The translations under genes were made by a program, and so were the position numbers. DNA of 63,902 nucleotides, the filler included, from an uncultured bacterium (GTDB taxonomy: Bacteria; DAOPZR01), in assembly GCA_964637655.1 (NCBI GenBank). It is 4 parts of 4 records of this genome, joined end to end, with 100 filler letters (N's around TTAATTAATTAA, not from the genome) between each part and the next. Parts side by side here need not be neighbours in the genome. Positions count along the whole stretch, not along the records: positions 32,652 to 48,681 come from CAZWUZ010000050.1; 3 more parts are not named here. One strand, written 5' to 3'. The notes under the pieces were generated by a model. That model searched no databases and was not told the origin of the DNA. It saw nothing but the letters and a program-made list of their open reading frames with translations. Positions 10,826 to 48,681 of the stretch are shown here, piece after piece. Within the stretch, counting starts at the first letter, position 1, and each line of letters begins with the position of its first letter.

Positions 10826-10832
10826 ATCAGAC

Positions 10833-10897
10833 AGTATAGCCGCTCCGTACTGACTTGGCAAGTTCCTTTGACAATCATCTTTAGCGGATAGTATACT
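10833..10897. promoter_or_regulatory. Back-to-back sigma70-type promoters
   Basis: Minus: TTGCCA(10861-10856)-N17-TATACT(10838-10833), 7 nt before ATG 10825. Plus: TTGACA(10868)-N18-TATACT(10892). Confidence 0.65.
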
Positions 10898-10998
10898 CAT
10901 CGCCACGGCTACGGGTTCAACCTGCAGTCGCTCAACACGCCGTCCGGAGGATACCAACCAGTGATTTTTTTGTCCCGGCAGCAACTGCAGTTCCGTTC

Positions 10999-12717: not shown

Positions 12718-12739
12718 CGTGCGGTCCGGATTTCCTGCC

Positions 12740-32651: not shown

Positions 32652-33083
32652 GTTGACGGTGAGCAGGCCTTCGGGCGAAACCTGCACAGTGAAATCGGTG
32701 CCGCGCACGCCCAACCAGGCGGTGGCGGTGGCAACGCGGTAGCGCTGCCCGTCGAGCCGCTCGACGCGCGACTGCGCCATTCCTTCGAATACCGTCAGTT
32801 GCACGGCACGGAAACGTTCGCCGTCAAAGCGGCCGTATGAGCGCGGCCCGAGGGTGACCGTTGAGCGGCTGAGCAGGCGCAGGGTGACGGAGGAACTGTC
32901 ACCGGTACGCAACTGCGCGCCGGCGGCAAGCGCCGCGCTGTCGTTCAGCGGCAGCCAGGGTGAGCCGGGGGCAACGCAGACCCGGACATCGCCTGTACGC
33001 GCGATAATCGCGGCGGCATGGGCGTGCGCGGCGAGAAGCAGGCCGAGCCCGGTCAGCAGGAGGAACCGCAGCAGCATAATCAT
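32652..33083 (-). CDS. Exported FecR-domain protein, truncated by contig end
   Basis: Signal peptide ending AHA; LRTGDSS, LGPRS, ATAWLGVRGTDF. Confidence 0.78.
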
Positions 33084-33163
33084 GGGCGGCAGTATATCAC
33101 AGTCATACCCTCTCTGACAGTCGTGCGTGATGGGCAGTTGCTGAAAACGCAAAACGACAGGCA

Positions 33164-33363
33164 TTTTACCGCAGAGGATACAGAGCATATTGAGCACACA
33201 GAGTACGACAACAGCGTTTTACCACGGATCACACGGGGACCACGGAGAAAATATCCGGGAAAAGGTCTCCGCCTGCGGCGAACAAACAGCCAAAACCGGA
33301 ACAACAGCATGACAAGGGGAAAACCCGGAATCTCTCCGTGTACTCTGTGTGCTCCGTGGTGAA
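33164..33363. repeat. CAC(A/G)CAGAG-family inverted-repeat element between divergent genes
   Basis: TTTTACCGCAGAGGATACAGAG..CACACAGAG and TTTTACCACGGA..CACGGAG on the left; CTCCGTGTACTCTGTGTGCTCCGTGGTGAA on the right. Confidence 0.7.
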
Positions 33364-33416
33364 TGCAATTGACTTGCATTGGTGTTCTGTCCCCGAATTC
33401 TGCTATACTTCCCGGC

Positions 33417-34238
33417 ATGACACTGAGGGGAAAACTGATCATCGGGACGGTGGCGGCACTGCTGCTGCTGGGCGGGCTGCTCTGGTGGCAGCCGCCGGCG
33501 GCGCGCGGCAACCGCAAGTACACACCCTCGCTGCTGGCGGGGTTCTCGTTCGGCGTTTTCTGGTTCGGGCTGGGGACCCGGTGGCAGCAGCGGCAGCGGA
33601 CGCTGGCAACGATGCCGGCGCGGCGCATCAGCAAAGCGGCGCGCGGACTGGTGGCGCTGCGCGGGCGCGTGGTGCCCCCCCGCGGCGTACAGTCGGCCCC
33701 GGCGACGGGGCAGCCCTGCGCCTGGTACCGGGTGGGGGTTGACCGCGAGATATTGAGTGCCCGCTATCGCGACTGGAGCGAAGCAGGGGCAGTGACAGCG
33801 CCGGTAGCGCTGCTTATCGAGGACGGGCACGGGCGGGCGCGCATCGACGGCGCACAGCTGGAACTCGACCGCGCGCCGCACTGGATCTCGCCCCCCTGGC
33901 GGGTGCCCGCTATCCCGGCGCACACGCAGGCGACGCTGGCGGAACTGCGGCTGATCGAGAAGAGCGTGCTGGGTACCGGGGAGAACGGGCGGACGCGGGA
34001 ATGGCGGCTGCGTGCGGGAGAGGAAGTCCAGGTCTACGGCACGGCGGTCGACGATCCTGACGGAAGCGCCGACCTGCTGCTGACCGATACGGACGGGGTA
34101 CTCATACTCTCGGCGAAACCGGGGACGGAACTGGCGGACGGACTGCGCGGCAAGGCGCTGGCCGGGCTCTGGGGCGGCGGTGTCATCACGGTGTCAACGG
34201 CGGTGGCGTTGGCACACAACTTCGGGCTGTTCGGATAA
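33417..34238 (+). CDS. Membrane protein with GIDE-like domain
   Basis: Two N-terminal TMs, GLVALRGRV, SAPATGQPCAWY, IEDGHGRARID, REWRL..G..V.VYG, C-terminal TM; TGcTATACT 7 nt before ATG. Confidence 0.6.
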   Translation: MTLRGKLIIGTVAALLLLGGLLWWQPPAARGNRKYTPSLLAGFSFGVFWFGLGTRWQQRQRTLATMPARRISKAARGLVALRGRVVPPRGVQSAPATGQPCAWYRVGVDREILSARYRDWSEAGAVTAPVALLIEDGHGRARIDGAQLELDRAPHWISPPWRVPAIPAHTQATLAELRLIEKSVLGTGENGRTREWRLRAGEEVQVYGTAVDDPDGSADLLLTDTDGVLILSAKPGTELADGLRGKALAGLWGGGVITVSTAVALAHNFGLFG

Positions 34239-34249
34239 AGGAGCAGGAT

Positions 34250-35461
34250 ATGCATTTCGCGATCAAGCCGCTGGGGTCGGCGCTGCACGGCGCGGCGACC
34301 ATGGCCAAACTGACGAAGACCGTGCAGGCGACGGTATCGCGCGCGGCGGGCGCCGTGGTGCCGGTAAGCGACGCGCCCGCACCCGAGGCCATCGTCCTGC
34401 TGGCGGTGCTGACGGGCGGCGCGGAGCGCGCGGGGGTGGCCTACATCCGCGCCGCGCGCCTGCGTTCCGTGGCGCTGCTCTGGCATGACACGCAGAACTC
34501 GCTGCCGGCGGCGCTGGAACTGGCCTCGTGGTGCGCGCAGCAGCGCATTCCCTGCCGCCTGCTCGGGGTCAGCGGGGCGTCGGCACAGCGCGAACTGCGC
34601 GGGGCGCTGCGCACGCTGCGTGCGGCGGAGGAATTCCGCGCGGCGCGGCTCGGGCTCATCGGCGGGGTGTCGGACTGGCTGGTGGGGAGCGGCATCCCGC
34701 GCGCCTTTCTCAAGCGGCAGGGGATGCACCTGCACGACATCCCGCTGCGCGTGCTGGAACATGCCTACCGGCGGCGGCTGCGCGTGAAGGAACACGCGGG
34801 GACGTTTGCGCAGGTGCCGCGCGAGATCGCGCGCGGCGAATGGGAAAAGGCGGAACTGCTGGCGGCGGCGCTGGCGGATGTCGTGGCGCACAAGAAACTC
34901 GACGCGTTCTCCATCCGCTGTTTCGACCTGCTCGGCAGCATCCGGGTGACGGGGTGCCTCGGGCTGAGCGCGCTGCTGTCGCGCGGCATCATCGCGGGGT
35001 GCGAAGGTGACGTGCCGAGCATGCTGACGCTGCTGGCGGCGCAGCGGGTGACGGGCGAAGAGCCGGTGATGCTCAACCCGTCGGCGTACGATCGCGCCGC
35101 GCGGCGGCTGGCGCTGGCGCATTGCACGGCCCCGCTGGGGTGCGTCGAGCCCGCCTCACGCGCGCTGCGCACGCATTTCGAGTCGGACGCCTCGGTGGCG
35201 GTGGCGGGGCGCATGCGCGCGGGGGTCTACACCCTGTGCAAGCTCGGCTTCGACGCTGACGGCGAACTGGCGGGTGTGCTGGCGGTGCGCGGCAAAGCGC
35301 TGCGGCAGCCGCTCTCGGTGCAGCGCTGCCGCGTGCAGCTGACGCTGCAGCTGGACGAACCGCTCGACAATTATCTGCGCCACCCGTACGGCAACCACCT
35401 GGTGGCGGTGCGCGGCGACCACCGCGCGGAACTCAACCACTTCCTGGAACTGATGAGGTGA
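34250..35461 (+). CDS. L-fucose/L-arabinose isomerase-like protein
   Basis: LTGGAE, RLGLIG..SDWL, IRCFDLL, GCEGDVP, AHCTAP, THFES, CRVQ, GNH. Confidence 0.7.
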   Translation: MHFAIKPLGSALHGAATMAKLTKTVQATVSRAAGAVVPVSDAPAPEAIVLLAVLTGGAERAGVAYIRAARLRSVALLWHDTQNSLPAALELASWCAQQRIPCRLLGVSGASAQRELRGALRTLRAAEEFRAARLGLIGGVSDWLVGSGIPRAFLKRQGMHLHDIPLRVLEHAYRRRLRVKEHAGTFAQVPREIARGEWEKAELLAAALADVVAHKKLDAFSIRCFDLLGSIRVTGCLGLSALLSRGIIAGCEGDVPSMLTLLAAQRVTGEEPVMLNPSAYDRAARRLALAHCTAPLGCVEPASRALRTHFESDASVAVAGRMRAGVYTLCKLGFDADGELAGVLAVRGKALRQPLSVQRCRVQLTLQLDEPLDNYLRHPYGNHLVAVRGDHRAELNHFLELMR

Positions 35462-35465
35462 GACC

Positions 35466-36383
35466 ATGTTGACCATGCATATCCGGCCCGACGTGCAGCA
35501 GGCACTGACGTCGGGAGCGCCCGTGCTGGCGCTCGAATCGACCATCATCTCGCACGGACTGCCGTACCCCGACAATGTGGCGTGCGCGCGCACGCTCGAG
35601 CGCATCGCGCGCGAGTGCGGGGTGACCCCGGCGACCATCGCCATCATCGACGGAACGGTTTCCATCGGTATCACCGACGAGGAACTGCTGCGGCTGGCGC
35701 AGAGCGACAACGTCGCCAAGGTGTCGCGCGCTGATATCGCGGCGGTCGTCGCGCAGCGGCGGATGGGGACGACGACGGTGGCGGGGACGATGATCCTCGC
35801 GGCCATGGCGGGAATCCGTTTTTTCGCCACCGGCGGCATCGGCGGCGCGCACCGCGGGGCGGAGTCGACGTTCGACATCTCGGCCGACCTCGAGGAACTG
35901 GCGCGCACCCCGGTGGGAGTGATCTCAGCGGGGGCCAAGGCGATCCTCGATATCCCCAAGACGCTGGAATACCTCGAAACGCGCGGGGTGCCGGTCATCG
36001 GCTACGGCACCGACAGTTTTCCGCTTTTTTATACGCGCAGCAGTTCCTACCGGCTGAATCTGCGCGCGGACGACGCGGCGACGGTGGCGCGCATCGCGCA
36101 GGCGCAGTTCGCCACCCCGCAACTGGCCGGGGGACTGCTCATTGCCAACCCCATCCCGGCGGAGAGCGAACTGCCGCCGGCGTACATCGATGACATCATC
36201 GCGCAGGCGGTGCGCGCGGCGGAGCAGGCGGCGGTGGCGGGCAAGCAGGTGACCCCGTTTTTGCTGGCGCGCATCGCGGAACTGACGGGCAAGAAGAGCA
36301 TCGTTGCCAACCTGGCGCTGATCGAGAACAATGTGCGTGTCGGCTGCGCCATCGCCACAGCCTACGCCGCACTGAAGAGCTGA
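35466..36383 (+). CDS. psuG: Pseudouridine-5'-phosphate glycosidase
   Basis: ALESTIISHGLPYP, PATIA, TTVAGTM, FATGGIGG, DISADL, GAKAILD, TPFLL. Confidence 0.95.
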   Translation: MLTMHIRPDVQQALTSGAPVLALESTIISHGLPYPDNVACARTLERIARECGVTPATIAIIDGTVSIGITDEELLRLAQSDNVAKVSRADIAAVVAQRRMGTTTVAGTMILAAMAGIRFFATGGIGGAHRGAESTFDISADLEELARTPVGVISAGAKAILDIPKTLEYLETRGVPVIGYGTDSFPLFYTRSSSYRLNLRADDAATVARIAQAQFATPQLAGGLLIANPIPAESELPPAYIDDIIAQAVRAAEQAAVAGKQVTPFLLARIAELTGKKSIVANLALIENNVRVGCAIATAYAALKS

Positions 36384-36398
36384 AAGACGGCAACGGCG

Positions 36399-37088
36399 TT
36401 CACCACAGAGCACGCAGAGCACACAGAGAACGGCGGAGGATGAGGGTGGCTCNNNNNNNNNNNNNNNNNNNNNNNNNNNNNNNNNNNNNNNNNNNNNNNN
36501 NNNNNNNNNNNNNNNNNNNNNNNNNNNNNNNNNNNNNNNNNNNNNNNNNNNNGTTCACCACAGAGCACGCAGAGCACACAGAGAACGGCGGAGGATGAGG
36601 GTGGCTCCCGCACGCGGGAGCGAAAGCATAAGGACAGGCGGCAGGATGTCTGAACCGGAGGAATGCATGGAAACGGAAGCCTATCCGGAACGGGAACTGA
36701 CTGAAAAGATTATCGGGGCAGCGATGGAAGTGCATCGCGAAGTCGGCCCGGGACTGCTTGAATCCGCATACGAAGAATGCCTTTGTCTGGAACTCGGTAG
36801 ACGGGGAATGCGGTACTCCCGCCAGGTTCCCCTGGCCTTTACCTATAAAGGGGCGCTAATTGATAACGGGTATCGCCTGGATTTTGTGGTGGAAGACACG
36901 GTTCTGTTGGAATTGAAAGCGGTGGAAAAACTGCTGCCGCTGCATCAGGCACAGTTGCTGACGTACCTCCGCCTCTCCGGTTTGCGGGTGGGAATGCTGA
37001 TCAATTTCAACGAAAAACTGCTTAAAAACGGCATTAGGCGACTGGTACAGTCATAGCGCTCTGCGTGCTCTGTGTGCTCTGTGGTGAA
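36399..37088. mobile_element. Putative element: GxxExxY gene bracketed by 30-bp inverted repeats
   Basis: Left TTCACCACAGAGCACGCAGAGCACACAGAG (36399 and 36554); right inverse 37059-37088, starting 2 nt after the stop. Confidence 0.6.
36646..37056 (+). CDS. GxxExxY protein (PD-(D/E)XK nuclease-like)
   Basis: IIGAAMEVH..GPGLLESAYEECL, RLDFVVE..LLELKAV, AQLLTYL, GMLINF. Confidence 0.93.
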   Translation: MSEPEECMETEAYPERELTEKIIGAAMEVHREVGPGLLESAYEECLCLELGRRGMRYSRQVPLAFTYKGALIDNGYRLDFVVEDTVLLELKAVEKLLPLHQAQLLTYLRLSGLRVGMLINFNEKLLKNGIRRLVQS

Positions 37089-37171
37089 AAAGAAGTTTGA
37101 CCGGAGGGGGCGGGCGGGTGTAGAATACCCTTTCGGCAAATACGGGCGGCAGCCCGCAACGGAGGCAGGCC

Positions 37172-37960
37172 ATGCAATCCCATGAAGTCGACTACGAGAT
37201 CTTCGGTGACGACATGCAGATCGTCGAGGTGGAACTCGACCCGAACGAGACGGTGATCGCGGAAGCGGGGGCGATGAACTACCTCGAGGACGGGATCACC
37301 TTCGAGGCGAAGATGGGTGACGGCTCCGCGGCGAACGAGGGGATCATGGGGGCGCTGCTCAACGTCGGCAAGCGGGTGCTCACCGGCGAATCGATTTTCC
37401 TCACGCACTTCACCAATCGCGGGCAGGGAAAGAAGCGGGTGGCGTTCGCGGCCCCCTATCCGGGCAAAATCATCCCGATGAACCTGGCACAGCTCGGCGG
37501 GGAACTGCTCTGCCAGAAGGATTCGTTCCTCTGCGCGGCACTGGGGACGAATATCGGCATCGCGCTGGCCAAGAAACTGGGCGCGGGCTTCTTCGGCGGC
37601 GAGGGGTTCATCCTGCAGAAACTGCGCGGCGACGGCATGGCGTTCGTCCATGCCGGTGGCACGATCATCAAGAAGGAACTGAATAACCAGTCGCTGCGTA
37701 TCGACACGGGGTGCATCGTCGCGTTCACCCCGGGACTGAACTACGACATCCAGCGCGCGGGAAACCTCAAGTCGATGTTCTTCGGCGGCGAGGGAATGTT
37801 CCTCGCCACGCTGTCGGGGACGGGGACGGCCTGGCTGCAGTCGCTGCCGTTCTCGCGCCTCGCGGACCGGATCATCGCGCACGCGCCGAAAATGGGCGGC
37901 AGCGCCAAGGGTGAGGGGTCGGTGCTCGGCACGGTCGGGCGGATGCTCTCGGGTGACTGA
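37172..37960 (+). CDS. TIGR00266/AIM24 family protein
   Basis: [51 protein letters not shown]. Confidence 0.92.
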
Positions 37961-37961
37961 C

Positions 37962-38531
37962 ATGGCCGACTGCGGCATTACGCGTGAGGCGGCGCTGGCG
38001 CTGCTGCGCGAGCACGTGCGCAGTGAAAACATGGTGCGCCACTGCCTGGCGTCGGAGGCGGTGCTGCGCGCGCTGGCGCGGCGATTCGGGGAGGATGAGG
38101 AGCAGTGGGGCCTGGCGGGGCTGCTGCACGATGTCGACGTGGAACTGACCAATGCCGATCTCAGCGTGCACGGCCTGGAAGCGGAGAAACTGCTGGCGGC
38201 GCGCGGCCTCGACCCGGTGATCGTCGAGGCCATCAAGCGGCACAACGAACTGGCGCACAACCTGAAGCGGGAGACGAAACTGCAGCACGCGCTGGCGGCG
38301 GGGGAGACGATTACCGGGCTGATCACGGCGACGGCGCTCGTCTACCCCGACAAAAAACTGGCGTCGGTGAAGGTAAAATCGGTGACCAAGCGGATGAAGG
38401 AAAAGGCGTTTGCGGCGTCGGTCAGCCGCGACATCATCCGCGAATGCGAACTTATCGGACTGCCGCTGGACGAATTCGCCGGGATTGCCTTGTCGGCGAT
38501 GCAGTCGATCAGCGGGGAACTGGGGCTCTGA
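37962..38531 (+). CDS. HDIG/HD-domain metalloprotein
   Basis: RHCLASEAV, WGLAGLLHDVD, H, AIKRH, KRMKEKAFAA. Confidence 0.88.
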   Translation: MADCGITREAALALLREHVRSENMVRHCLASEAVLRALARRFGEDEEQWGLAGLLHDVDVELTNADLSVHGLEAEKLLAARGLDPVIVEAIKRHNELAHNLKRETKLQHALAAGETITGLITATALVYPDKKLASVKVKSVTKRMKEKAFAASVSRDIIRECELIGLPLDEFAGIALSAMQSISGELGL

Positions 38532-38532
38532 C

Positions 38533-39711
38533 ATGCCGGTACGCGAACTGCCGCTCAGCCAGGCGCGCGAAGGACTGATTCTCGGGCGTACGGTGACAGC
38601 GCCGGACGGAACGCTGCTCGCGGAAAAGGGGGCGGTGCTGACGGGGCATCTGCTGCTGCGGCTGGCACAGTGGCGCATCGGCAGCGTGCCGGTCTGGGAG
38701 GATGAGGCGGTCAGCACCCCGCTGGAACTGTACGAGCGGGCGAAACTGACGGCGGAGAAGGTCGTCAAGCTGAACGAAGGACTGAAGCGCGGCGGCGAAC
38801 TGCAGGAGCAGATGACCAGCGTCACGCGGCGCATGCTCGACACGCTGCAGATGAAGCGCGAGATGGACTACCCCGCGGCGAAGGGCGTGGTGGAAAAACT
38901 GCTCGGGGAGGTGATCGGGCAGCCCGAGGTGATGTCAACGCTGCTTACCGTGCGGCATTTCGACACCTACCTGATGAACCACTCGCTGAACGTGAGTGTG
39001 CTGGCGGTGATGACCGGGCATATCATGGGGCTGGCCCAGGAGGAGTTGCGGGTCATCGGTGAGGCGGCGCTGCTGCACGACGTGGGGATGACGATCATCC
39101 CGTCGGTAATCTGGAACAAGAACGCGCCGCTGACGGACAACGAGCGGTTCGAGGTGCAGAAGCACCCGATCTTCTCGGCGGACATCGTCGACAAGATCTA
39201 TGGCATCGATGTCGCGCTGAGCCGCGTGGTCTACCAGCATCACGAGCGCGCGGACGGGAGCGGCTACCCCAAGGGGCTGAGCGGTGGGCGGCTGACGCGC
39301 AACGCGCGCATCCTCGCGGTGGCGGACACTTACGACGCGATGAGCAACCCGCGCCCCTACCGGCAGGCGATCATCCCGCACGAGAGCATCCGGGCGCTGA
39401 TTACGCTGGCGAACACGGCGCTCGATCAGGAGACGGTGCGCGCGTTCATCACCCACATGTCGTTCTACCCGGTGGGGAGCGTGATCCGCCTGTCGAGCGG
39501 GGAACTGGCGGTGGTGGTGCTCGCCAACCGCACCACCCCGCTGCGCCCGCAGGTCAAAATCTGCCAGAACGTGGACGGCAGGTACACGGCGGACGGCCCC
39601 TACCTGAACCTGGCGGTGGATGAGGGGCTGAATATCGCGGAATGCGTGAGCGACCCGGCGGTTATCGCTGACGTGTTGGATACCCTGGCCAAACCGGTGT
39701 CCCCGGCCTGA
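38533..39711 (+). CDS. HD-GYP domain phosphodiesterase
   Basis: HSLNV, LLHDVG, QHHERADGSGYPKG, VADTYDAM, RPYR. Confidence 0.93.
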   Translation: MPVRELPLSQAREGLILGRTVTAPDGTLLAEKGAVLTGHLLLRLAQWRIGSVPVWEDEAVSTPLELYERAKLTAEKVVKLNEGLKRGGELQEQMTSVTRRMLDTLQMKREMDYPAAKGVVEKLLGEVIGQPEVMSTLLTVRHFDTYLMNHSLNVSVLAVMTGHIMGLAQEELRVIGEAALLHDVGMTIIPSVIWNKNAPLTDNERFEVQKHPIFSADIVDKIYGIDVALSRVVYQHHERADGSGYPKGLSGGRLTRNARILAVADTYDAMSNPRPYRQAIIPHESIRALITLANTALDQETVRAFITHMSFYPVGSVIRLSSGELAVVVLANRTTPLRPQVKICQNVDGRYTADGPYLNLAVDEGLNIAECVSDPAVIADVLDTLAKPVSPA

Positions 39712-39725
39712 AAACCGCCCCGTAC

Positions 39726-39754
39726 TTGACAGCGCGGGGAAATCTGTTTATGGT
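39726..39754 (+). promoter_or_regulatory. Sigma70 promoter of the topoisomerase gene
   Basis: TTGACA-N17-TATGGT; AAGGAG RBS before ATG 39819. Confidence 0.6.
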
Positions 39755-39818
39755 ACAGCGCGTTGCGCCATGAATCAGGCGGCGTTGCGTGTGCGTATAT
39801 GCCGCTGAAGGAGCAGGT

Positions 39819-41945
39819 ATGCTGATTGTCATCGAATCGCCCAACAAGAGCAAAAAAATCGGGGCGCTGGCCAAGGCGCCGGTGGTCGCCACCGTCGGTC
39901 ATTTCCGCGACCTGCCGGACAAGGATCTGGGGATCGACCTGCAGACCTATGTGCCGACGTTTGTCTATACCGCGCGCGGCAAGAAGGTGGCGGGGCAGTT
40001 GAAGAGCGCGGCCAAGGGTGAGGACGTCTATATCGCGACCGACCCGGACCGCGAGGGGTATGCCATCGGCATGATGGCCTACGAGGAAGTCAAGAAGATC
40101 GCCAAGGCCTGCTTCCGGCTGGAAATCCGCGAAATCACCCCCAAGGGGGTGAAGGAAGCGTTCGCCAAGGCCATCCCGTTCGAGAAGACCAATTACGGAC
40201 TGTATGACGCGTTTCTCGGGCGGCGGGTGGGTGACCGCATCGTCGGCTACACCCTGTCGCCGCGGGCGATGCGCACCCTGCGCGGCAGTTTCAGCGTCGG
40301 GCGCGTGCAGTCGCCGGCGGTGCGCCTGCTGGTCGAGCGCGAGCGCGAGATTCGCGCCTTTGTCCCCGAAACCTACTGGAAACTGGCGGTACAGCTGCGC
40401 AAGGAGGAAACGTCATTCCTCGCGTGGCATACGGGTGACCGCTTCAAGGAGAAACCGGTCGCGGACGCCATTTTCGGGCGCATCACGGCAGCGACGACGG
40501 CGCAGGTCACGGACGTCAAGACGCGCGAGGAGCGCCGGCGCCCGAAGGCGCCCTTCACCACGGTCGACATGCAGGCGACGGCAAACGCGCAGCTGCGCAT
40601 GGCGCCCGAGTACTCGATGAAACTGGCGCAGGACCTGTTCGAACACGGGCTTATCACCTACCACCGTACCGACAGTGTGCGGCTGGCCGATGATTTCATC
40701 ACCGAGATCCGCACGTATGTCGAGGGCAATTTCGGGAAGCAGTACCTGCCGGCGGCGCCCAACGTCTACAAGTCGAAGAACTCGCAGGCGGAGGCGCACG
40801 AGGGCATCCGCCCGACGGCCCTGCAGCCGGTGGCGGAGATCGCCGCGCTCATGGCGGGCGAAGGACTGACGGACGAGCATCGCACGCTGTACGAACTGAT
40901 TTTCAGCCGCGCGGTGGCCAGCCAGATGACCGAGAGCATTTACGACGGCACGACCGTGCTGTTTGACGTGGCGGGCGAACCGTTCAAGGCGACGGGGAGC
41001 GTGCTGCGCTTCGACGGCTACCTGAAACTGTACCACGAACTCGAGGCGGAGAAGGAAAACGACCCCGACCAGGACAAGGCGGCCGAAGAGGACGCGGAGA
41101 ACCAGCAGCTGCCGGCACTGGCCGCGGGGGAGACGGTGGCCAAGGAGAAGGACCTGCTCGAAGAAAAGCAGACCAAGCCGCCGGCGCGGTTCACCGAGGG
41201 ACGACTGGTCAAGGAACTGGAAAAGCGGGGCATCGGGCGCCCGTCGACCTACGCGGCCATCATGCGCACGCTCAAGACGCGCGACTACGTCAACAAGCAG
41301 AAGGGGCGGCTGGTGGCGACGTGGAAGGCGGAGAAGCTGATTGATTATCTCGCCGCGCGCTACCAGTGGATTATCGACTACGAACTGACGCGCAGCTGGG
41401 AGGAGACCCTCGACCGGGTGGAAGAGGGGAAGGACCACTGGCAGGCGATGGTCAAGGATGTCTACACCAAGATCAACACGGTGCAGCCGGAATCGGCAAT
41501 CTCCGGGCCGCCACGCCCCCCGGGCACGCCCTCGCCCAAGCAGCTGTCGTATGCGCGGGCGCTTTCGGAGCAGACGGGCATGCCGCTGAGCGAGGAGCAA
41601 CTGGGAAGCAGCAAGCTGATCTCGGCGTTCATCGACGAGGCGCGGAGCAAGTCACGGTCAGTGGCGCCGCTGAGCGGCAAGCAGATGGCGGTGATCACCA
41701 AGAACGCGCCGCCCGAACTGGTCAAGCAGATCGAGGATGGCGACGTGCTGGCCGGGCGCGACTTTCTCGACACCTTCTTCGCGGAACTGAAGCAGAACCG
41801 CACGGCGCGCTACAAGCGCGGGCGCGGCGGCAAGGGCGCGGCGGAGAGTGCGCCCCCCGCGGCGGATGGCACCACCATGACGCCGGCGGTCAAGAAAAAG
41901 GCCCCGGCGAAGAAAAAGGCGGCAGTGCGCAAAAAAAAGTCCTGA
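39819..41945 (+). CDS. topA: Type IA DNA topoisomerase
   Basis: VIESPNK, ATVGH, ATDPDREG, GRVQSP, LITYHRTDS, AHEGIRPT, GIGRPSTYA. Confidence 0.92.
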   Translation: MLIVIESPNKSKKIGALAKAPVVATVGHFRDLPDKDLGIDLQTYVPTFVYTARGKKVAGQLKSAAKGEDVYIATDPDREGYAIGMMAYEEVKKIAKACFRLEIREITPKGVKEAFAKAIPFEKTNYGLYDAFLGRRVGDRIVGYTLSPRAMRTLRGSFSVGRVQSPAVRLLVEREREIRAFVPETYWKLAVQLRKEETSFLAWHTGDRFKEKPVADAIFGRITAATTAQVTDVKTREERRRPKAPFTTVDMQATANAQLRMAPEYSMKLAQDLFEHGLITYHRTDSVRLADDFITEIRTYVEGNFGKQYLPAAPNVYKSKNSQAEAHEGIRPTALQPVAEIAALMAGEGLTDEHRTLYELIFSRAVASQMTESIYDGTTVLFDVAGEPFKATGSVLRFDGYLKLYHELEAEKENDPDQDKAAEEDAENQQLPALAAGETVAKEKDLLEEKQTKPPARFTEGRLVKELEKRGIGRPSTYAAIMRTLKTRDYVNKQKGRLVATWKAEKLIDYLAARYQWIIDYELTRSWEETLDRVEEGKDHWQAMVKDVYTKINTVQPESAISGPPRPPGTPSPKQLSYARALSEQTGMPLSEEQLGSSKLISAFIDEARSKSRSVAPLSGKQMAVITKNAPPELVKQIEDGDVLAGRDFLDTFFAELKQNRTARYKRGRGGKGAAESAPPAADGTTMTPAVKKKAPAKKKAAVRKKKS

Positions 41946-41961
41946 ACAGAACATCCCGTGG

Positions 41962-41989
41962 CGGCGTCAGGAAGCAGTTCCTGACGCCG
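41962..41989. terminator. Perfect 12-bp hairpin between convergent genes (terminator or REP-like)
   Basis: CGGCGTCAGGAA-GCAG-TTCCTGACGCCG; no U-tract. Confidence 0.5.
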
Positions 41990-42028
41990 TACGTGTCTGC
42001 GGCCGCGGCGTATCAGCGGGGAGCGCGG

Positions 42029-42502
42029 TTATGAAGCGGGGCGGAGGCGGGCGCGGGCGGCGGCCTTGCAGCGGCCGTAGTCGACGGTGCTGATGCTGAG
42101 GGCGGCGGCGATTTTCAGCACGCGCTGCTCCTCGGCGCCGTCGAGATGCCCGTCGGCGGCAGCGACTTCGAGCAGCAGGTCAAGCAGGCGGAGGCGCTCG
42201 GGGTAGGGACGACCGCCCGCGACGGTGCGGACGAAGGAATAGCTTTCCACCGCCTGCGCGTCGGCGGTTTCGGCGAATGCCAGCAGCCCTTCGGCGTCAG
42301 TGGCCGGCAGGGCGAACTCCCGCTGCAGTATGGCGGCGGCGGCGGCGCGTTCAGCCGGGGCAAAATGTCCGTCGGCGGCGGCGGTTTTGAGCAGCAGGAC
42401 GGCGAGGGCCACCTCGCGCGCCTGCGGGTCGCGGGTCGGGGCGCTCTCGGCGAGCGCGGCGGGGCGCAGCAGCAGGTTGCGTACGGTATCAAGCAGGGCC
42501 AT
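42029..42502 (-). CDS. TerB-family protein
   Basis: Two AADG..xxE motifs (AAADGHFAPAE, AAADGHLDGAE). Confidence 0.85.
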   Translation of the reverse strand: MALLDTVRNLLLRPAALAESAPTRDPQAREVALAVLLLKTAAADGHFAPAERAAAAAILQREFALPATDAEGLLAFAETADAQAVESYSFVRTVAGGRPYPERLRLLDLLLEVAAADGHLDGAEEQRVLKIAAALSISTVDYGRCKAAARARLRPAS

Positions 42503-43199
42503 CAGTGTTCTCCAGCAGCGGGATGAGTTCCGTCAGCGAGTGCACAGTGTCATAGACGCCGCCGACGGGCACCTCGCTGTAGCGCCAGGCGGGGAAGATG
42601 CGCATGAGCACGGCGCGGCAGCCGAGCGCGATGGCCGGGGCGATCTCCCCGCGCAACGAGTCGCCGATCACGGTGACGGTGCGCGGGTCGCGTTCCCCGA
42701 TAACGGTGTGCAGCGCTTCCCCGGTTTTCTGCGCGACGATATGCACGGCGGCGAAGTGGCGGCGCAGGTCGTTGACGGCGATCTTGCGCTTCTGGATCGC
42801 CTGCACCCCGAGCGTGTAGAGGATCAGCTCGTATGTTGTCCCGAGACGTTCGAGCACGGCATGGGTATCAGGGAAGGCGCGCGGCACGTCGTCGTAGACG
42901 CAGCGCCCGAGAGCGTCGAGTTCCTGTTCGAGCGCCAGCGGGCAGGGCAGGTGCGCGCGACTGGCAACGCGGCGCGCGGTCTCGGTGAGCGACCAGGGGA
43001 AACGGTCGACAGCGAAGCCGAAGGCGGCAACCGCCTGCCCGTCGATCTCCTCCTGCAGGTCGCGGATGGCGGCGCGGTCCATGCCGGCATCGGGATACGC
43101 GGCGGCGATGCGGTCGACAGCGGCGGTGATGGCGGTCTCGTAGAGCGGCGCGGTGGCAATCAGCGTATCGTCGAGATCAAAGACCAGCGTGCGCGGCAT
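42489..43199 (-). CDS. HAD-superfamily hydrolase
   Basis: FDLDDTL, YTLG, K, IGDSLRGEI. Confidence 0.88.
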   Translation of the reverse strand: MPRTLVFDLDDTLIATAPLYETAITAAVDRIAAAYPDAGMDRAAIRDLQEEIDGQAVAAFGFAVDRFPWSLTETARRVASRAHLPCPLALEQELDALGRCVYDDVPRAFPDTHAVLERLGTTYELILYTLGVQAIQKRKIAVNDLRRHFAAVHIVAQKTGEALHTVIGERDPRTVTVIGDSLRGEIAPAIALGCRAVLMRIFPAWRYSEVPVGGVYDTVHSLTELIPLLENTDGPA

Positions 43200-43202
43200 G
43201 AA

Positions 43203-43784
43203 TCAGGCGCTGACCCGGTGCCCGCATTGCGGGCAGAACTTCGTGTCGCGCGGGAAGGTCGTCTGGCACTGCGCGCAGCGGTGGGGGGCTTCCGGTTGCG
43301 CCGGCTCGGCTTTGGCCGGTTTGGCCGGCGGTTTCGGCTTTTCCGCGGCGGCGGGCGGCGGCACTGCCCGCGGAAAGCGGTTGGCTTCGCGCAGGCGTCC
43401 GGAGAGCGAGCGGAGGATCTGCAGGACGATGGGGTTGGAGGAACCGATGATGAGATTGAAGTTCTCGCGCGCGATGCAGATGAGTTTCACCTGGGTCAGC
43501 GCGCGCGCGGTGGCGGAACGCGGGCAGTCGTTGAGCAGCGCCATCTCGCCGAAAAAGTCGCCGCGCTTGAGGATGCCGAGCGTCTGCACCCCGGTACCGG
43601 CGAAAAGGCGCGTGCTGCGGTCGAGTTCGAATTCGCGGTAGGTCTTGGTCACCTCGACTTCGCCGTCGAGAATGAGGTACATCTCGTCGCCGCAGGAGTC
43701 CTCCATGAAGATGACGCTCCCCGGCCCGTACTCGCGCCCGAACTTCACGTAGAGCTGCTCGAGTTTTTCCAGCGACAGTTCCAT
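43203..43784 (-). CDS. Cyclic-nucleotide-binding protein with C-terminal zinc ribbon
   Basis: GDEMYLILDGEV, GDFFGEMALL..PRSATARA; CAQC..CPQCG. Confidence 0.85.
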   Translation of the reverse strand: MELSLEKLEQLYVKFGREYGPGSVIFMEDSCGDEMYLILDGEVEVTKTYREFELDRSTRLFAGTGVQTLGILKRGDFFGEMALLNDCPRSATARALTQVKLICIARENFNLIIGSSNPIVLQILRSLSGRLREANRFPRAVPPPAAAEKPKPPAKPAKAEPAQPEAPHRCAQCQTTFPRDTKFCPQCGHRVSA

Positions 43785-43794
43785 GCGTTTCTCC

Positions 43795-44088
43795 TCAGAC
43801 CAGTCCGGCGTACAGCAGGTAGGCCCAGTTGGCGGTGAGCGCGACGAGCAGCAGCCAGCGGGCACCGGGGATGTGCGGGCCGTGTGGCCAGCGGCCGTTG
43901 CGGCGGTGACGGCTGATGCCCCAGGCGGCATAGGCGGCAATGCCCGCCAGCAGGAGCAGCAGGCCGGGATTGAGCAGCAGCGCGCGCTGCCAGTCACCGT
44001 GCAGCAGGGCCAAAACCGCACGCGTCCCCCCGCAGGACGGACAGGGATACCCCGTCAGCCAGTGGAAGGGGCAGGGGAGCGCGGGCAT
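43795..44088 (-). CDS. DUF2752-like small membrane protein
   Basis: CPFHWLTGYPCPSCGGTRA..LLHGD..ALLLNP. Confidence 0.8.
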   Translation of the reverse strand: MPALPCPFHWLTGYPCPSCGGTRAVLALLHGDWQRALLLNPGLLLLLAGIAAYAAWGISRHRRNGRWPHGPHIPGARWLLLVALTANWAYLLYAGLV

Positions 44089-44766
44089 TTACGCGGCCGC
44101 GGCGAAGGCGCCAGCACCGACGGCGACGACGATGATGGCGATGACCCCGCCAATAATGAGCAAGGTGCAGGTGCAGCCGATGAGCAGGTAGCCGACAATG
44201 GCCTGCCACCATTCGATCTCATGCATCTCTTTCAGGCCAATGATGGCGAGCCCGACCGTCCACAGGCCGCCGACAATGCCGCCGATAATGGGGACGACGG
44301 CAAAGCACATCGGGGCCTGCGCGTAGGCAACGGCGCGGAAGGTGGTCTCGAAGCCGCGTCTGGCGCCACCGACAATCAGCAGCCCGAGATGGGCCAAGGC
44401 GCTGGTAACAAAGAGCCCGAGGACGGCACCAACCGGACTGAAGATGATGGCGATGACCGCAAAGACGACGTTGAAGCCGCCCTGCATCATGGCGGTCTGC
44501 ACGGCTGCCTCCTCACCGCTGGCGGCGGTGAGGCCGGCGCTGGCGAGCTGCATGAGCAGGTTCCACAATTGGCCGAAGGCGATGCCAATGGTGGCGAAAA
44601 TGGCGCCGTAGTAGAGCGGTCCGGTGAGCCCCCCCTCGCGCGGGGTGCCGGCGAAGTAGGCGGTCGGCTCGAACAGCGATTGTTGGGCTGCGGCGAGCAG
44701 CGCGTTCCAGGTGCCCAGTGACTCGCGCTGTTCCCAGGGATTGACGGTTGCGGACGGGTTTTCCAT
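44089..44766 (-). CDS. YIP1-family membrane protein
   Basis: NPWE.R..LG, LFEPTAYF, FETTFRAVAYAQAP, GLKEMH; promoter TTGCCT-N17-TAGAAT and AGGAGG upstream. Confidence 0.8.
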   Translation of the reverse strand: MENPSATVNPWEQRESLGTWNALLAAAQQSLFEPTAYFAGTPREGGLTGPLYYGAIFATIGIAFGQLWNLLMQLASAGLTAASGEEAAVQTAMMQGGFNVVFAVIAIIFSPVGAVLGLFVTSALAHLGLLIVGGARRGFETTFRAVAYAQAPMCFAVVPIIGGIVGGLWTVGLAIIGLKEMHEIEWWQAIVGYLLIGCTCTLLIIGGVIAIIVVAVGAGAFAAAA

Positions 44767-44829
44767 GTGCCACCTCCTGCGGGGTATTCTACACGGTTGC
44801 GCGGGTGGAGGCAAATTGACTGCGGCCTT

Positions 44830-44982
44830 GCCCTCCATGGCGGCTGCGGCATGCATCGCCTCGTGCGATTGGCCGCAGCCTGTGCCCTCCATGGCGGCTG
44901 CGGCATGCACTGCATCCTGCAGTTTGCCGCAGCCTGTGCCCTCCATGGCGGCTGCGGCATGCATCGCCTCGTGCGATTGACA
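44830..44982. repeat. 54-bp palindromic tandem repeat, about 3 copies, between divergent promoters
   Basis: GCCCTCCATGGCGGCTGCGGCATGCA at 44830, 44884, 44938. Confidence 0.9.
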
Positions 44983-45005
44983 GGGGGGCACGGGCAAACT
45001 ACAAT
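44977..45005 (+). promoter_or_regulatory. Leaderless-type sigma70 promoter of the BMC-P operon
   Basis: TTGACA-N17-TACAAT, 7 nt before ATG 45013, no SD. Confidence 0.72.
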
Positions 45006-45012
45006 TCGCGGC

Positions 45013-45354
45013 ATGGAACTGGCCTTGGTTACGGGTACGGTCGTCTGTTCGGTCAAGGACGCCAACATGCCCGTGGAAAAACTGCTCCTGCTGCAGCCCC
45101 TGACGACCGCCCTGCAGGCGAAGGGTGACGAACTGGTCGCCACCGACGTGACGGGGGCGGGTGTGGGGGAAGTGGTGCTTTTCGCCAAGGGGTCGTCCGC
45201 GCGTCAGACCGCCGCGACGGAGAACAAGCCGGTGGACGGGCTGGTCATCGGCATCGTCGACGAGATGGAACTGCACGGAAAACTCGCCTTCCGCCGGGGA
45301 CAGGACGAGCCGACACTGGCCGCCATCGACAGGCAGCTGGCGGGGAAAAAGTAA
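45013..45354 (+). CDS. BMC vertex protein (EutN/CcmL, BMC-P) 1, with C-terminal extension
   Basis: MELALVTGTVVCSVKD..KLLLLQP..VATDVTGAGVGE..GSSAR..PVDGLVIGIVD. Confidence 0.9.
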   Translation: MELALVTGTVVCSVKDANMPVEKLLLLQPLTTALQAKGDELVATDVTGAGVGEVVLFAKGSSARQTAATENKPVDGLVIGIVDEMELHGKLAFRRGQDEPTLAAIDRQLAGKK

Positions 45355-45629
45355 TGCATCCCGCGAAAGTCATCGGGCGGGTGGTCTGCAGCCGCCAGTA
45401 CGAGACGCTGCGCCACGAGAAACTGCTGGTGGTGCAGCCGACGGACTGGACCGGGGCGGCGAAGGGTGAACCGTTCATTGCCATCGACGCGGTCGGGGCG
45501 GGCGCGGACGAGTGGATCATGTACGTGCAGTCGCGCGAGGCGGCGTTCCCCTTCAAGAAGATGCCGCCGGTGGACGCGGCCATCGTCGCCATCATCGACG
45601 GTGTCGAGTTCAGGAAGGAACTGCTCTGA
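45354..45629 (+). CDS. BMC-P protein 2
   Basis: AKVIGRVVCS..KLLVVQP..AIDAVGAG..SREAA..PVDAAIVAIID; TAATG coupling. Confidence 0.9.
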   Translation: MHPAKVIGRVVCSRQYETLRHEKLLVVQPTDWTGAAKGEPFIAIDAVGAGADEWIMYVQSREAAFPFKKMPPVDAAIVAIIDGVEFRKELL

Positions 45630-45925
45630 TGTTCACCTGCCGGGTGGTCGGGACGGTCTGGGCGACGCGCAAGCACCGCGCGCTGGAAGGCAAGCGCATG
45701 CTGCTGGTGGCGCCCGTGGACGGCATCACCGGCAAGACGGTGGCCGACCCGATGATGGCGATCGCGGGTAAGATCGACGCGGGGATCGGCGACCTCGTGC
45801 TGGTGATCGACGAGGGGAGCTCGACCCGCTACATCCTCGGCGATGACCATGCCCCCATCCGCACCAACGTGGTCGGCGTGGTCGACGCGGTGAGCGAGGG
45901 CGCACACACGGTGCGCTACCACTGA
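45629..45925 (+). CDS. BMC-P protein 3
   Basis: RVVGTVWATRKH..LEG..DAGIGDLVLV.DEGSSTR..PIRTNVVGVVD; TGATG coupling. Confidence 0.9.
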   Translation: MFTCRVVGTVWATRKHRALEGKRMLLVAPVDGITGKTVADPMMAIAGKIDAGIGDLVLVIDEGSSTRYILGDDHAPIRTNVVGVVDAVSEGAHTVRYH

Positions 45926-46227
45926 TGAAACTCGCGCGCGTTCTCGGCACGGTCATCTGCACGCACAAGGACCCGAACTTCACCGGCAAGAAACTGCTCG
46001 TCGTGCAGCCGGTGGATTCGCGCCTGGCGCCGGCGGGAAAGAAGGAAGTGTCGGTGGACACGGTGGACGCGGGCGAGGGTGACCTGGTGATGATCGTCAA
46101 CGGGTCGTCGGCGCGGCGCACGGGGACCAGCCGCACGCATCCCTGCGACAGCGCGATCATCGCGATCATCGACAGCGTGCACGCGGACGGGAAACGGACC
46201 TACCTGAAGGCGGAGGACCGCACGTGA
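45925..46227 (+). CDS. BMC-P protein 4
   Basis: MKLARVLGTVICTHKD..KLLVVQP..VDTVDAGEGD..GSSAR..PCDSAIIAIID. Confidence 0.92.
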   Translation: MKLARVLGTVICTHKDPNFTGKKLLVVQPVDSRLAPAGKKEVSVDTVDAGEGDLVMIVNGSSARRTGTSRTHPCDSAIIAIIDSVHADGKRTYLKAEDRT

Positions 46228-46511
46228 AACTGGCGAAGGTGACCGGGACGGTGGTGGTCAGCCGCAAGGACGACAACCTGCCGGGCGACCGGCTGCTCAT
46301 CGTGCGCAACCTCGACCGCGCCATGCAACCGCAGGCGGGCGAATTCATCGTTATGGACACGGTCGACGCGGGCGAAGGCGACATCGTCCTTTACAGCACG
46401 GGGTCGTCGGCGCGCATGACGAAGACCATGTGGGAGAAGTGCGTCGACGGGACCATCGTCGGCATCGTGCAGCACGTGACGCGCGGCGACCAGACCGTCT
46501 ACCGCACGTGA
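46224..46511 (+). CDS. BMC-P protein 5
   Basis: KLAKVTGTVVVSRKD..DTVDAGEGD.VL..GSSAR..VDGTIVGIV; GTGA coupling. Confidence 0.9.
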   Translation: MKLAKVTGTVVVSRKDDNLPGDRLLIVRNLDRAMQPQAGEFIVMDTVDAGEGDIVLYSTGSSARMTKTMWEKCVDGTIVGIVQHVTRGDQTVYRT

Positions 46512-46514
46512 CCC

Positions 46515-47633
46515 TTGCCGTCCGCTCCGCGTTCCATACCCCTCGCACCTGAAACCGCGCCGCCGGCTACGGGGCGCACACGACGCATCCTGCACATCGT
46601 CAATGCCCTGACCATTGGGGGAGCCGAGCAGACGCTCTGCGCTCTCGCGCGGCACCAGCGCGCGCAGGGACATGCCGTGCAGGTGCTGACGCTGGCGCGG
46701 CGCGGGGCGCTGGCGGACGGCCTCGCGGCTGACGGCATCGACATCAGGCACGTGCCGCTGACCGGCTGGTGGCAGGTGCATCGGCTGGCGGCAGTGGCGG
46801 ACGCCATCAGCGTCTTTGCTCCCGACAGCATCCATACCCACCTGTTTGCCGCGTCACTGACCGCGGCTCTCGCGGCGCGCGGTGCGGGGTATGCCGGCAG
46901 GTTTGGCATCAGCATCTACGAGACGGGCTACTGGATGCGTTCGTGGCACCGGCTGGCGGAGCGGTTGTGCATCGTGACGCGCGCGGACACGGTTATCGCT
47001 GACAGCCCGGTGCTGACGGAGATGCTGGTTGCCCGCGGCTATGACCGTGCGCGTCTCCACGTGGTTTACCCGCTGGTCGCCCCGGCGTATGAGAAACTGC
47101 CGGCGCCGGCGGCGGACAATACCGCCGCGCTGCTGCCGGCGCGGCTCGACCCGGTGAAGGGGCATGACGTGCTGCTGGCGGCGCTGGCGCGGCACGGCAA
47201 GGAGTTGCCGCGGCTGACGGTGACCTGCGCGGGTGACGGGCCGCTGCGCGCAGCGCTCACGGCCCGGGCCCCGGCGGGCGTGCGCTGTGCCGGCGACTGC
47301 CCCGACCTGCCGGCACTGCTGCGTGAGCATGCCATCGTGGTGCTGCCGTCGCGCGAGGAGACGACGCCGCTGGTGCTGCTCGAGGCGATGGCAGCGGGGC
47401 GCGCCATCGTGGCGAGCGCGCTGCCGGGGATCATGGCCATCCTGCGCGACGGGGAAGAGGCGCTGCTGGTGCCGCCCGACGACGCGGACGCGCTGGCGGC
47501 GGCGTTGCGGCGCCTGCATGACGACGCGGCGCTGCGGGCGCGGCTGGGGGCGGCGGCGCGCGCGCGCTATGCCCGGGAATTCTCCGCAGCGGCACAGCTG
47601 CGGGCCCTGGAGGGTATTTATGGCGCGCACTGA
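46515..47633 (+). CDS. Glycosyltransferase family 4
   Basis: ILHIVNAL.IGGAE, ARLDPVKG, ETTPLVLLEAMAAG; exact start uncertain. Confidence 0.9.
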   Translation: MPSAPRSIPLAPETAPPATGRTRRILHIVNALTIGGAEQTLCALARHQRAQGHAVQVLTLARRGALADGLAADGIDIRHVPLTGWWQVHRLAAVADAISVFAPDSIHTHLFAASLTAALAARGAGYAGRFGISIYETGYWMRSWHRLAERLCIVTRADTVIADSPVLTEMLVARGYDRARLHVVYPLVAPAYEKLPAPAADNTAALLPARLDPVKGHDVLLAALARHGKELPRLTVTCAGDGPLRAALTARAPAGVRCAGDCPDLPALLREHAIVVLPSREETTPLVLLEAMAAGRAIVASALPGIMAILRDGEEALLVPPDDADALAAALRRLHDDAALRARLGAAARARYAREFSAAAQLRALEGIYGAH

Positions 47634-48681
47634 ACAGCGGCCGGGGGTGCTCATGGTCTGCTGGCATTTCCCGCCGGCCGGCGGCGCGGGCGTGCAGCGC
47701 TCGCTGCAGTTTGCGGCCAACCTCGCGCGGCAGGGCGTGCGCGTGGTCGTGCTGACGACGGACGGCGGACACCATTTTGCCGAGGACGCGTCGCTGCTGG
47801 CGGCGGTGCCGGCGGCGGTGCGGGTCGAGCGGGTGCGCGGGTTCGACCCGGAGGCGCTGGACGCGGTGCGGCAGCTGCGGGCGCGGCCCGTGAACACTCC
47901 GGACGCGGCGCGCGGCACGACGTGGCAGGTGCTGCGGTATCTGAAGCGCTTCCTCTCCGTACCCGACACGAAACTTGCCTGGCTGCCGGCGGCGGTGGCG
48001 CGCGGACGCGGCCTGCTGCAGGCGGAACACCTCGATACCATCTACACCACGGCGCCCCCGTACACGGCCCATCTCGTCGGCTGGCTGCTGCATGACCTGA
48101 CCGGGAAACGCTGGCTCGCAGATTTCCGCGACCCGTGGGCGGACAGCCCGTACGCGACGTACGCGACGCCGCTGCACCGGTGGCTCGACCACCGCCTGGA
48201 ACGCGCGGTAGTGCGGGCGGCGGACGCGGTGATCGGGGTGAACGCGGCAGTAACGGCGGGGCTGCAGCGCGTGGCGCATGACGACAGGAAGTGCCACACC
48301 ATTTACAACGGCTACGTGGCGATGTCGTCGGCCCCGGCTGCGCGTGCGGACGGGCAGTTCACCATCGTGCATCTCGGCACGCTGTACGGCAAGCGCTCGG
48401 CAGCAAACTTTCTGCGCGCAGCGGGCGCGTTCCGGCGGCAGCGTCCGGCGGCGAACCTGCGCCTTGTCTTTGTCGGGCAGTTCGACACGGAGCAGGCGGC
48501 AGTGACGGAAGCGGCGGTGACGGAAGCGGGACTGGCGGACGCGGTGGAACGTACCGGGTTTCTGCCGCGCGCGGCGGCGCTGGCGCGGCTGCAGGCGGCG
48601 CACGCGGCGGTGCTCATCATTCACGGTGACGAGACCCCGGAAAAACTGTTCGACTACCTGCAGGCGGAACTGCCGGTGCTC
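47620..48681 (+). CDS. Glycosyltransferase family 4-like, truncated by contig end
   Basis: HFPPAGGAGVQR, TTAPPY..HLVG, ADFRDPW, IYNGY, HLGTLYG.R, EKLFDYL. Confidence 0.85.

Follow-up and report, generated by a model that had tools for sequence, protein, structure and literature searches.

A stretch of 63,902 nucleotides from an uncultured bacterium (GTDB lineage Bacteria; DAOPZR01; assembly GCA_964637655.1), hereafter the window, was analysed for five consecutive genes encoding pentameric vertex proteins (BMC-P) of bacterial microcompartments (BMCs). These genes, W1 to W5, probably constitute a satellite vertex operon of a fragmented, FRAG-like microcompartment, the facet and cargo genes of which would be located elsewhere in the genome. 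Their array is an enlarged version of a catalogued pattern, the BMC-P triplet, and was larger than every locus examined. The window consists of contigs chained via N44-TTAATTAATTAA-N44 spacers, and the array is located on the piece 32652-48681, a contig of 16 kb.

Open reading frame (ORF) calling placed the five genes at 45013-46511, the same coordinates as those of an earlier note on this DNA (the original prediction), in the following arrangement:

45013..45354, plus strand: W1, 113 aa, class T1, with GAGVGE and GSSARQT; PF03319 E-value 8e-26
45354..45629, plus strand: W2, 91 aa, class T2, with an SREAA loop and without GSSAR; PF03319 E-value 1e-25
45629..45925, plus strand: W3, 98 aa, class T3, with a one-residue insertion, DEGSSTR and P-I-R; PF03319 E-value 6e-20
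45925..46227, plus strand: W4, 100 aa, extra gene of class T1, with DAGEGD and GSSARRT; PF03319 E-value 9e-29
46224..46511, plus strand: W5, 95 aa, GTG start, extra and more diverged gene of class T1, with DAGEGD and GSSARMT; PF03319 E-value 4e-24

The Pfam profile PF03319 (EutN_CcmL) matched all five proteins end to end (profile positions 1-83) with 72-100 bits, the gathering cut-off being 25 bits, and each of them displayed what characterizes a BMC-P protein, namely a single PF03319 domain in about 90-110 aa. Successive genes overlap by 1, 1, 1 and 4 nt at junctions reading TAATG, TGATG, TGATG and GTGA, the GTG start of W5 overlapping the stop of W4. Pairwise identity ranged from 24 to 41%, and the G+C content at third codon positions (GC3) was 0.83-0.94, similar to that of host genes. 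The description of five consecutive, divergent and overlapping paralogues given in the original prediction was therefore confirmed, as were the differences it had noted between loops (GSSAR in W1, W4 and W5, SREAA in W2, EGSSTR in W3), which proved to be signatures of three classes.

These classes were established from the 80 best related loci, fetched from species-representative genomes with an alignment of W1 and its database matches. Within the fetched flanks, three BMC-P genes were present in 47 loci, one in 31 and two in 2, none of the 80 having more than three; hexamer (BMC-H) genes were found within the flanks of 71. The genes of the 47 triplet loci were named T1, T2 and T3 by position, and median BLAST scores against each class were as follows:

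W1: T1 83, T2 50, T3 49 bits; best class T1
W2: T1 50, T2 55, T3 41 bits; T2, narrowly
W3: T1 41, T2 40, T3 58 bits; best class T3
W4: T1 82, T2 65, T3 56 bits; best class T1
W5: T1 67, T2 49, T3 43 bits; best class T1

In maximum-likelihood trees combining W1-W5 with 12-15 triplet loci, W1, W4 and W5 fell within the T1 clade (SH-aLRT 96 and 94), W2 within the T2 clade (98) as sister to T2 of Elusimicrobiota, and W3 within the T3 clade (83 and 92), grouped with T3 of Elusimicrobiota. Consensus loops drawn from the 47 triplet loci read GSSARqT in T1, ..REAa in T2 and ldEGn.AR, with an insertion of one residue, in T3, in agreement with those of W1/W4/W5, W2 and W3, respectively. Moreover, W1, W2 and W3 were each nearest to the corresponding gene of two Elusimicrobiota metagenome-assembled genomes (MAGs; loci L002 and L003), W3 reaching 107 bits and 52% identity with the T3 gene of L002. 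Loops, trees and scores therefore define an operon of the composition T1-T2-T3 + T1 + T1, in which W1-W2-W3 is, to judge from its sequence, the BMC-P triplet of Sutter et al. (2021; Nat Commun 12:3809, PMC8217296) in the usual order T1-T2-T3.

According to the text of that catalogue, two BMC-P clades always co-occur with a third member, which comes from clades often supplying the sole BMC-P of a locus (PMC8217296). If T2 and T3 are assumed to be its 'gray' and 'orange' clades, the window contains both co-occurring clades and the third one. The likeness extends to the presence of one gene per class in the same order, the classes being found together in 47 of the 80 related loci, and to the role of the multiplicity, unexplained in both cases. 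The array differs from the triplet in that there are five paralogues at the locus instead of exactly three, two T1-class genes being added and all five forming one overlapping array. For SPU loci, "at least a triplet" is mentioned in another report (PMC11585597), and the passages on vertices in both sources give the reason for several vertex paralogues as unknown, although a shell needs only twelve pentamers (PMC8217296, PMC11585597).

The location of the array, too, can be compared with described systems. The catalogue text attributes to FRAG types shell genes in up to six places and a triplet (PMC8217296), and satellite loci, as outlined there and by Axen et al. (2014, PMC4207490), may contain shell genes only. 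The array resembles such loci as a shell-protein-only locus with a triplet, remote from enzymes on the 16-kb contig; dispersed hexamer genes would be a further FRAG feature. Unlike these loci, it has five genes versus three, and its nearest triplet relatives, those of Elusimicrobiota, lie inside a main metabolosome locus. The original prediction had seen no BMC-H, BMC-T or aldehyde dehydrogenase (AldDh) gene on the 16-kb contig, and a Pfam search of its 16 larger ORFs, two of which belonged to no Pfam family, agreed in finding no shell or AldDh gene there. A BMC-H profile, for which eight genes of related genomes were used, gave no match in any frame of the 64-kb window (best E-value 0.8), nor was AldDh, PduL-type phosphotransacylase (PTAC) or TIM matched across it by the proteins of the nearest relative's locus. 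As in satellite loci, PF03319 genes were thus contiguous and on their own, no PF00936-like ORF, AldDh or PTAC being found in 64 kb.

Separation of this kind was also observed in other genomes. Triplets lay apart from BMC-H genes in G003, G004 and G005, and a tandem triplet without nearby BMC-H occurred in an Ignavibacteriota MAG; BMC-H genes were present in all five related genomes that were checked for PF00936. In L003 (Elusimicrobiota), positions 8202-13432 hold a metabolosome core consisting of TIM, PduL-type PTAC, BMC-H, T1, AldDh, BMC-T, T2 and T3, with a 5'-nucleotidase gene upstream. We take this core to fit a sugar-phosphate type of the catalogue.

In the mechanism we propose, the canonical triplet W1-W3 would cap the vertices of a shell encoded elsewhere, W4 and W5 would be two T1-class paralogues added 3' of the triplet, and one promoter together with translational coupling would drive all five genes. 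The T1-class copies W1, W4 and W5 could then supply alternative or mixed caps, T1 presumably being among the clades that, per Sutter et al. (2021), are often the only source of BMC-P at a locus. Five would be a matter of copy number and not a one-to-one map onto the positions of a pentamer. The likeliest partner would be an aldehyde-processing metabolosome, because the nearest triplet relatives sit in a metabolosome core (L003). Among the three options considered in the original prediction (an asymmetric 1:1:1:1:1 vertex, interchangeable caps or a shell-independent ring), that of interchangeable caps comes near to this reading.

Several observations weigh against a satellite vertex operon. No BMC-H, BMC-T or cargo gene of the organism was seen, and we therefore infer the existence of the shell, as we do the entry of all five proteins into it and their mode of oligomerisation. 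Coupling as tight as that of these five genes would be expected of the subunits of one complex, and BMC-P paralogues are able to form heteropentamers, as reported in the section on CsoS4A/B of PMC11606499. A GT4-family glycosyltransferase gene starts 4 nt past W5 and may be co-transcribed, a feature which a role in a shell does not explain. As regards the classes, that of W2 rests on a small score margin and on the tree, and support for the T3 clade reached only 83-92.

The distribution of BMC-P copy numbers bears on the interpretation of the number five. PF03319 was searched in 1,204 genomes, samples of four groups (other phyla may differ), and BMC-P genes were found in 341 of them:

Elusimicrobiota: 301 searched, 65 with BMC-P; three genes in 61, two in 2, one in 2
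Verrucomicrobiota: 301 searched, 64 with BMC-P; three genes in 63, two in 1
Planctomycetota: 401 searched, 142 with BMC-P; three genes in 87, four in 15, five in 27, two in 6, one in 7
Class of the Ignavibacteriota MAG: 201 searched, 70 with BMC-P; three genes in 57, four in 3, six in 1, two in 5, one in 4

Exactly three genes were thus found in 268 of the 341 BMC-P-bearing genomes, and an unbroken run of more than three or more than four at one locus in none of the 341. All PF03319 matches were listed for all 46 genomes with at least four. In three of these (G319, G1129 and G1171), one gene was followed after 1.3-3 kb by a tandem triplet, and these quartet loci comprised two T1-class genes, T2 and T3. 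Since the extra gene of the quartets is of class T1, an additional T1 copy is a recurrent feature, which the array of the window carries furthest: T1-class copies numbered one in triplets, two in quartets and three in the window, and only this class varied in copy number, from 1 to 3. The quartet loci are thus similar to the array in having multiple T1-class genes with T2 and T3 at one locus; unlike in the array, these are interleaved with BMC-H and BMC-T, the longest unbroken run being three. The quartet architecture was nearly identical in two phyla, in L117 and L118 from the class Ignavibacteria and in L119 from Planctomycetota (a T1-class gene, a two-domain BMC-H-like gene, BMC-H, a T1-class gene, T2, T3 and a weakly matching tandem-domain gene), suggesting that a whole shell module was transferred.

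Other genomes with more than three genes were built differently. The 27 five-gene Planctomycetota genomes (G316, G366, G376 and 24 more; loci L097-L116), above which no Planctomycetota genome was found, have exactly five PF03319 genes each, as does the array; unlike in the array, they are split 3+2 in 23 genomes and 2+2+1 in 4. In all ten 3+2 genomes for which both loci were fetched, a tandem triplet had no BMC-H within 7 kb, and the extra pair was flanked by BMC-H and a tandem-domain gene in the main locus. These two genes resembled T3 and do not correspond to W4 and W5. Of the 15 four-gene Planctomycetota genomes, 14 had a single gene some 1 kb from a pair; their fourth match was remote and mostly weak (E-values of 1e-5 to 1e-9 in eight genomes and 1e-19 to 1e-23 in six). 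It fell within open frames (86-511 aa) of other contigs and may represent a diverged EutN-like domain in a larger protein. The genes of G1123 were split 2+1+1 and those of G1164 3+2+1.

Only close strains (about 90-95% identical), from metagenomes of four studies, were found to have the five-gene array. Words of the stretch were shared by seventeen public runs belonging to 11 studies, and four of these runs were compared with it. A groundwater run of another study (X5) contained a 1,666-nt contig colinear with 44950-46614, spanning the whole array together with both flanks and differing at 77 positions, without gaps, a DNA divergence of 4.6% from the window. Short pieces of about 87-97% identity were recovered over the W1/W2, W3/W4 and W5/GT junctions from a biogas run and over the W2/W3 and W5/GT junctions from a landfill run; pieces of 248-392 nt in X7 and X8, on four and three parts of the array, indicate the presence of relatives and not of an intact array. 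Joints in these contigs, such as one in X5 that skips 45512-46153 and has a short side of 21 nt, were set aside as cross-matches between paralogues or with other organisms; sides below 30 and likeness below 95 are warning signs of such matches.

At the protein level, P0001 was 93% identical to W1, P0160 97% to W4 (about 3 of 100 residues differ) and P0121 99% to W5; the next best sequences reached 55% for W4 among 45 candidates and 52% for W5 among 56, sets in which more distant orthologues may be missed. P0001 and P0121 are both listed with a 4,036-nt contig, P0160 with a 1,666-nt contig of the same size as the groundwater contig, and P0002, 67% identical to W1, is on a contig of 1,411 nt. 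Because amino-acid changes are few relative to the 4.6% DNA divergence, the data suggest purifying selection on the array, if differences are evenly spread. The array is, by present indications, kept in one narrow lineage across several habitats. A metagenome scan added six distant loci, the best of which (L085, 1,143 nt) encodes a partial T1 with 60% identity to W1 and a T2 with 43% identity to W2; no third BMC-P was found in its remaining 690 nt or so, which are spanned by an open frame.

Two features at the protein ends may be mentioned. W1 has a C-terminal tail, RGQDEPTLAAIDRQLAGKK, of 18-20 aa past the PF03319 domain (45295-45351, residues 95-113), which is common to P0001 and partly to P0002; tails also occur on some other T1-class genes. 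At 46458-46466, W5 reads IVQ, where the other four proteins and the class consensus have I/V-I/V-D, a motif which we take to contact hexamers in the Haliangium shell structure.

An unlikely alternative to a single satellite operon is that the array pools vertex genes of several systems, W1-W3 serving one microcompartment type and W4 and W5 one or two others elsewhere. In free trees, W4 and W5 grouped with other T1 subclades than W1 did: the neighbour of W5 was the T1-class copy lying upstream in the quartet loci (SH-aLRT 93), and W4 belonged to the same clade of 18 rows (88). W4 and W5 also share DAGEGD, versus GAGVGE in W1. Genomes with several BMC types are, moreover, said to have been found common by the authors of the catalogue. 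However, approximately unbiased (AU) tests did not reject a single clade of W1, W4 and W5 (p 0.55 and 0.63), the likelihood of the constrained trees even being higher, by 3.3 and 8.5 lnL units, than that of the quick free ones, in alignments of about 98 columns; GC3 gave no sign of recent transfer, and no second system was visible in the window. W4 and W5 each share about 39-41% identity with W1, and 40% with one another; they may have originated either by an old duplication within the lineage or by acquisition from another system.

Vertices of defined mixed composition, either 1:1:1:1:1 rings or T2/T3 pentamers accepting W1, W4 or W5, appear still less probable. The closest published case concerns CsoS4A and CsoS4B of the alpha-carboxysome (Sci Adv 2024, PMC11606499), which are likewise adjacent BMC-P paralogues and form heteromeric pentamers on co-expression; in contrast to W1-W5, they are two paralogues of another BMC-P clade, and the account consulted leaves stoichiometry and presence in the shell open. 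A co-expression test of this kind on triplet-type BMC-P proteins was not found in the literature. If vertices were indeed mixed, an asymmetric or tunable vertex would explain why there are several BMC-P paralogues per microcompartment.

It is improbable that W4 and W5 are redundant duplicates, surplus copies without a role of their own. They do belong to the class of W1, come last in the operon and are known only from one narrow lineage, yet they have remained intact and full length at the divergence given above, and their near-identical orthologues (97% for W4, 99% for W5) point to purifying selection, if differences are evenly spread.

An ordered heteropentamer, in which one chain of each kind would occupy a fixed place in a single asymmetric vertex, is very improbable, even if five overlapping genes behind one promoter favour equimolar synthesis and the whole array is gap-free in a strain of about 95% identity. 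The co-assembly of CsoS4A and CsoS4B (PMC11606499) and the fact that, in the text of the catalogue, the T2/T3 classes are never alone (PMC8217296), a hint of co-assembly, also speak for it. Nevertheless, the triplet alone is the norm and three kinds of chain cannot fill five places singly; the prevalence of triplet-only genomes implies that the ancestral set works with three chain kinds. The original prediction had regarded freely varying copy number among relatives as evidence against itself, and such variation is what the succession from one to two to three T1 copies across loci amounts to. It had also looked to conservation of the five-gene order in relatives, which was met with in none of the 80 loci and none of the 341 genomes, that is, nowhere beyond strain level. 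Furthermore, T1 was separated from T2-T3 by about 2-4 kb in most triplet loci, the gap in L003 containing AldDh and BMC-T, so that coupling of all members is not general, and the five-gene Planctomycetota use two or three loci with another class make-up. With the triplet as the norm, variation restricted to T1 and the array found only in near-identical strains, the proposed match between five genes and five pentamer positions was not supported.

A shell-independent ring, for instance one acting with the downstream glycosyltransferases, would account for 64 kb without a shell or cargo gene and for a GT4 gene 4 nt past W5 with no predicted terminator, but it is the most remote of the explanations, given that no conserved partner was found among 16 neighbour proteins in the fetched BMC-P loci, that BMC-H is present in the five related genomes checked, that orphan triplets are the published FRAG pattern and that all five proteins have kept the conserved loops of the family.

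Of the cases found, the array is the most compact and goes furthest, with three classes and two T1 extras in 1.5 kb behind one promoter, and it offers a convenient single construct for asking whether the pentamers of triplet-type BMC-P proteins are homomeric or heteromeric. The term 'BMC-P triplet' was found in the literature only in the catalogue of Sutter et al. (2021) and its preprint. No published description of five tandem BMC-P genes was found, and the supplementary locus diagrams of the catalogue may contain one. Melioribacter roseus, according to the section of Axen et al. (2014, PMC4207490) dealing with it, has seven BMC-P genes, like the present array more than vertices need; they are distributed over five loci, unlike the five genes in one operon of the window. 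The survey adds two observations, the restriction of copy variation to T1 and a sizeable group of Planctomycetota whose exactly five BMC-P genes are divided among two or three loci. Neither was met in the published text of the catalogue, whose supplements may include them.

A promoter of its own, already proposed in the original prediction, was recovered in front of the array, in the intergenic region between the divergent Yip1 and BMC-P genes, together with a series of repeats:

44977..45005, plus strand: sigma-70-like promoter TTGACA-17-TACAAT, 11/12 consensus matches
44829..44990, no strand assigned: three tandem 54-nt repeats, 100/87/85% identity, spacing 54

The scan detected two sigma-70-like sites in 3.7 kb versus 0.2 expected from shuffles. 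Because the -10 hexamer ends only 7 nt 5' of the W1 ATG, the W1-W5 mRNA may be leaderless or nearly so; no Shine-Dalgarno sequence was found between the two. Each 54-nt unit contains 9-nt inverted arms, GGCTGCGGC..GCCGCAGCC, and the third unit extends as far as the -35 hexamer, overlapping it. The 24-nt core of the repeats has three copies in the window, all of them here, versus 0 expected, and the repeats are a candidate operator array. Assemblies of related strains break at this place: X1 and X8 have only short pieces there and the X5 contig begins at 44950.

Upstream of the array, on the minus strand, Pfam identified genes for a Yip1-domain protein, a DUF2752 protein and a zinc-ribbon cNMP-binding protein; farther upstream, the genes include those for a topoisomerase, HD proteins and AIM24. 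At 33363-35458, two ORFs (291 and 403 aa) have a coding-like GC3 and belong to no Pfam family. The markers examined did not place the lineage: LepA shared 49-59% identity (up to 62% across one fragment) with ten genomes from diverse phyla, the protein atlas pointed to mixed phyla, and Rfam gave no match. In the comparison of the 16 neighbour proteins with the fetched BMC-P loci, 13 had no match; the others matched weakly, at 30-34% identity (HD2 in 1 locus, cNMP in 3 loci, GT4a in 1 locus, the best match of GT4a being at 30%). On the 3' side, two GT4 glycosyltransferase genes occupy 46515-48681, the first of which is:

46515..47633, plus strand: GT4-family glycosyltransferase (Pfam Glyco_trans_1_4, Glycos_transf_1), beginning 4 nt past the W5 stop

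No plus-strand terminator was predicted between 44000 and 47700, and GT4 may be co-transcribed with W1-W5. The W5-GT4 junction was retained in the X5 contig, from the strain of about 95% identity.

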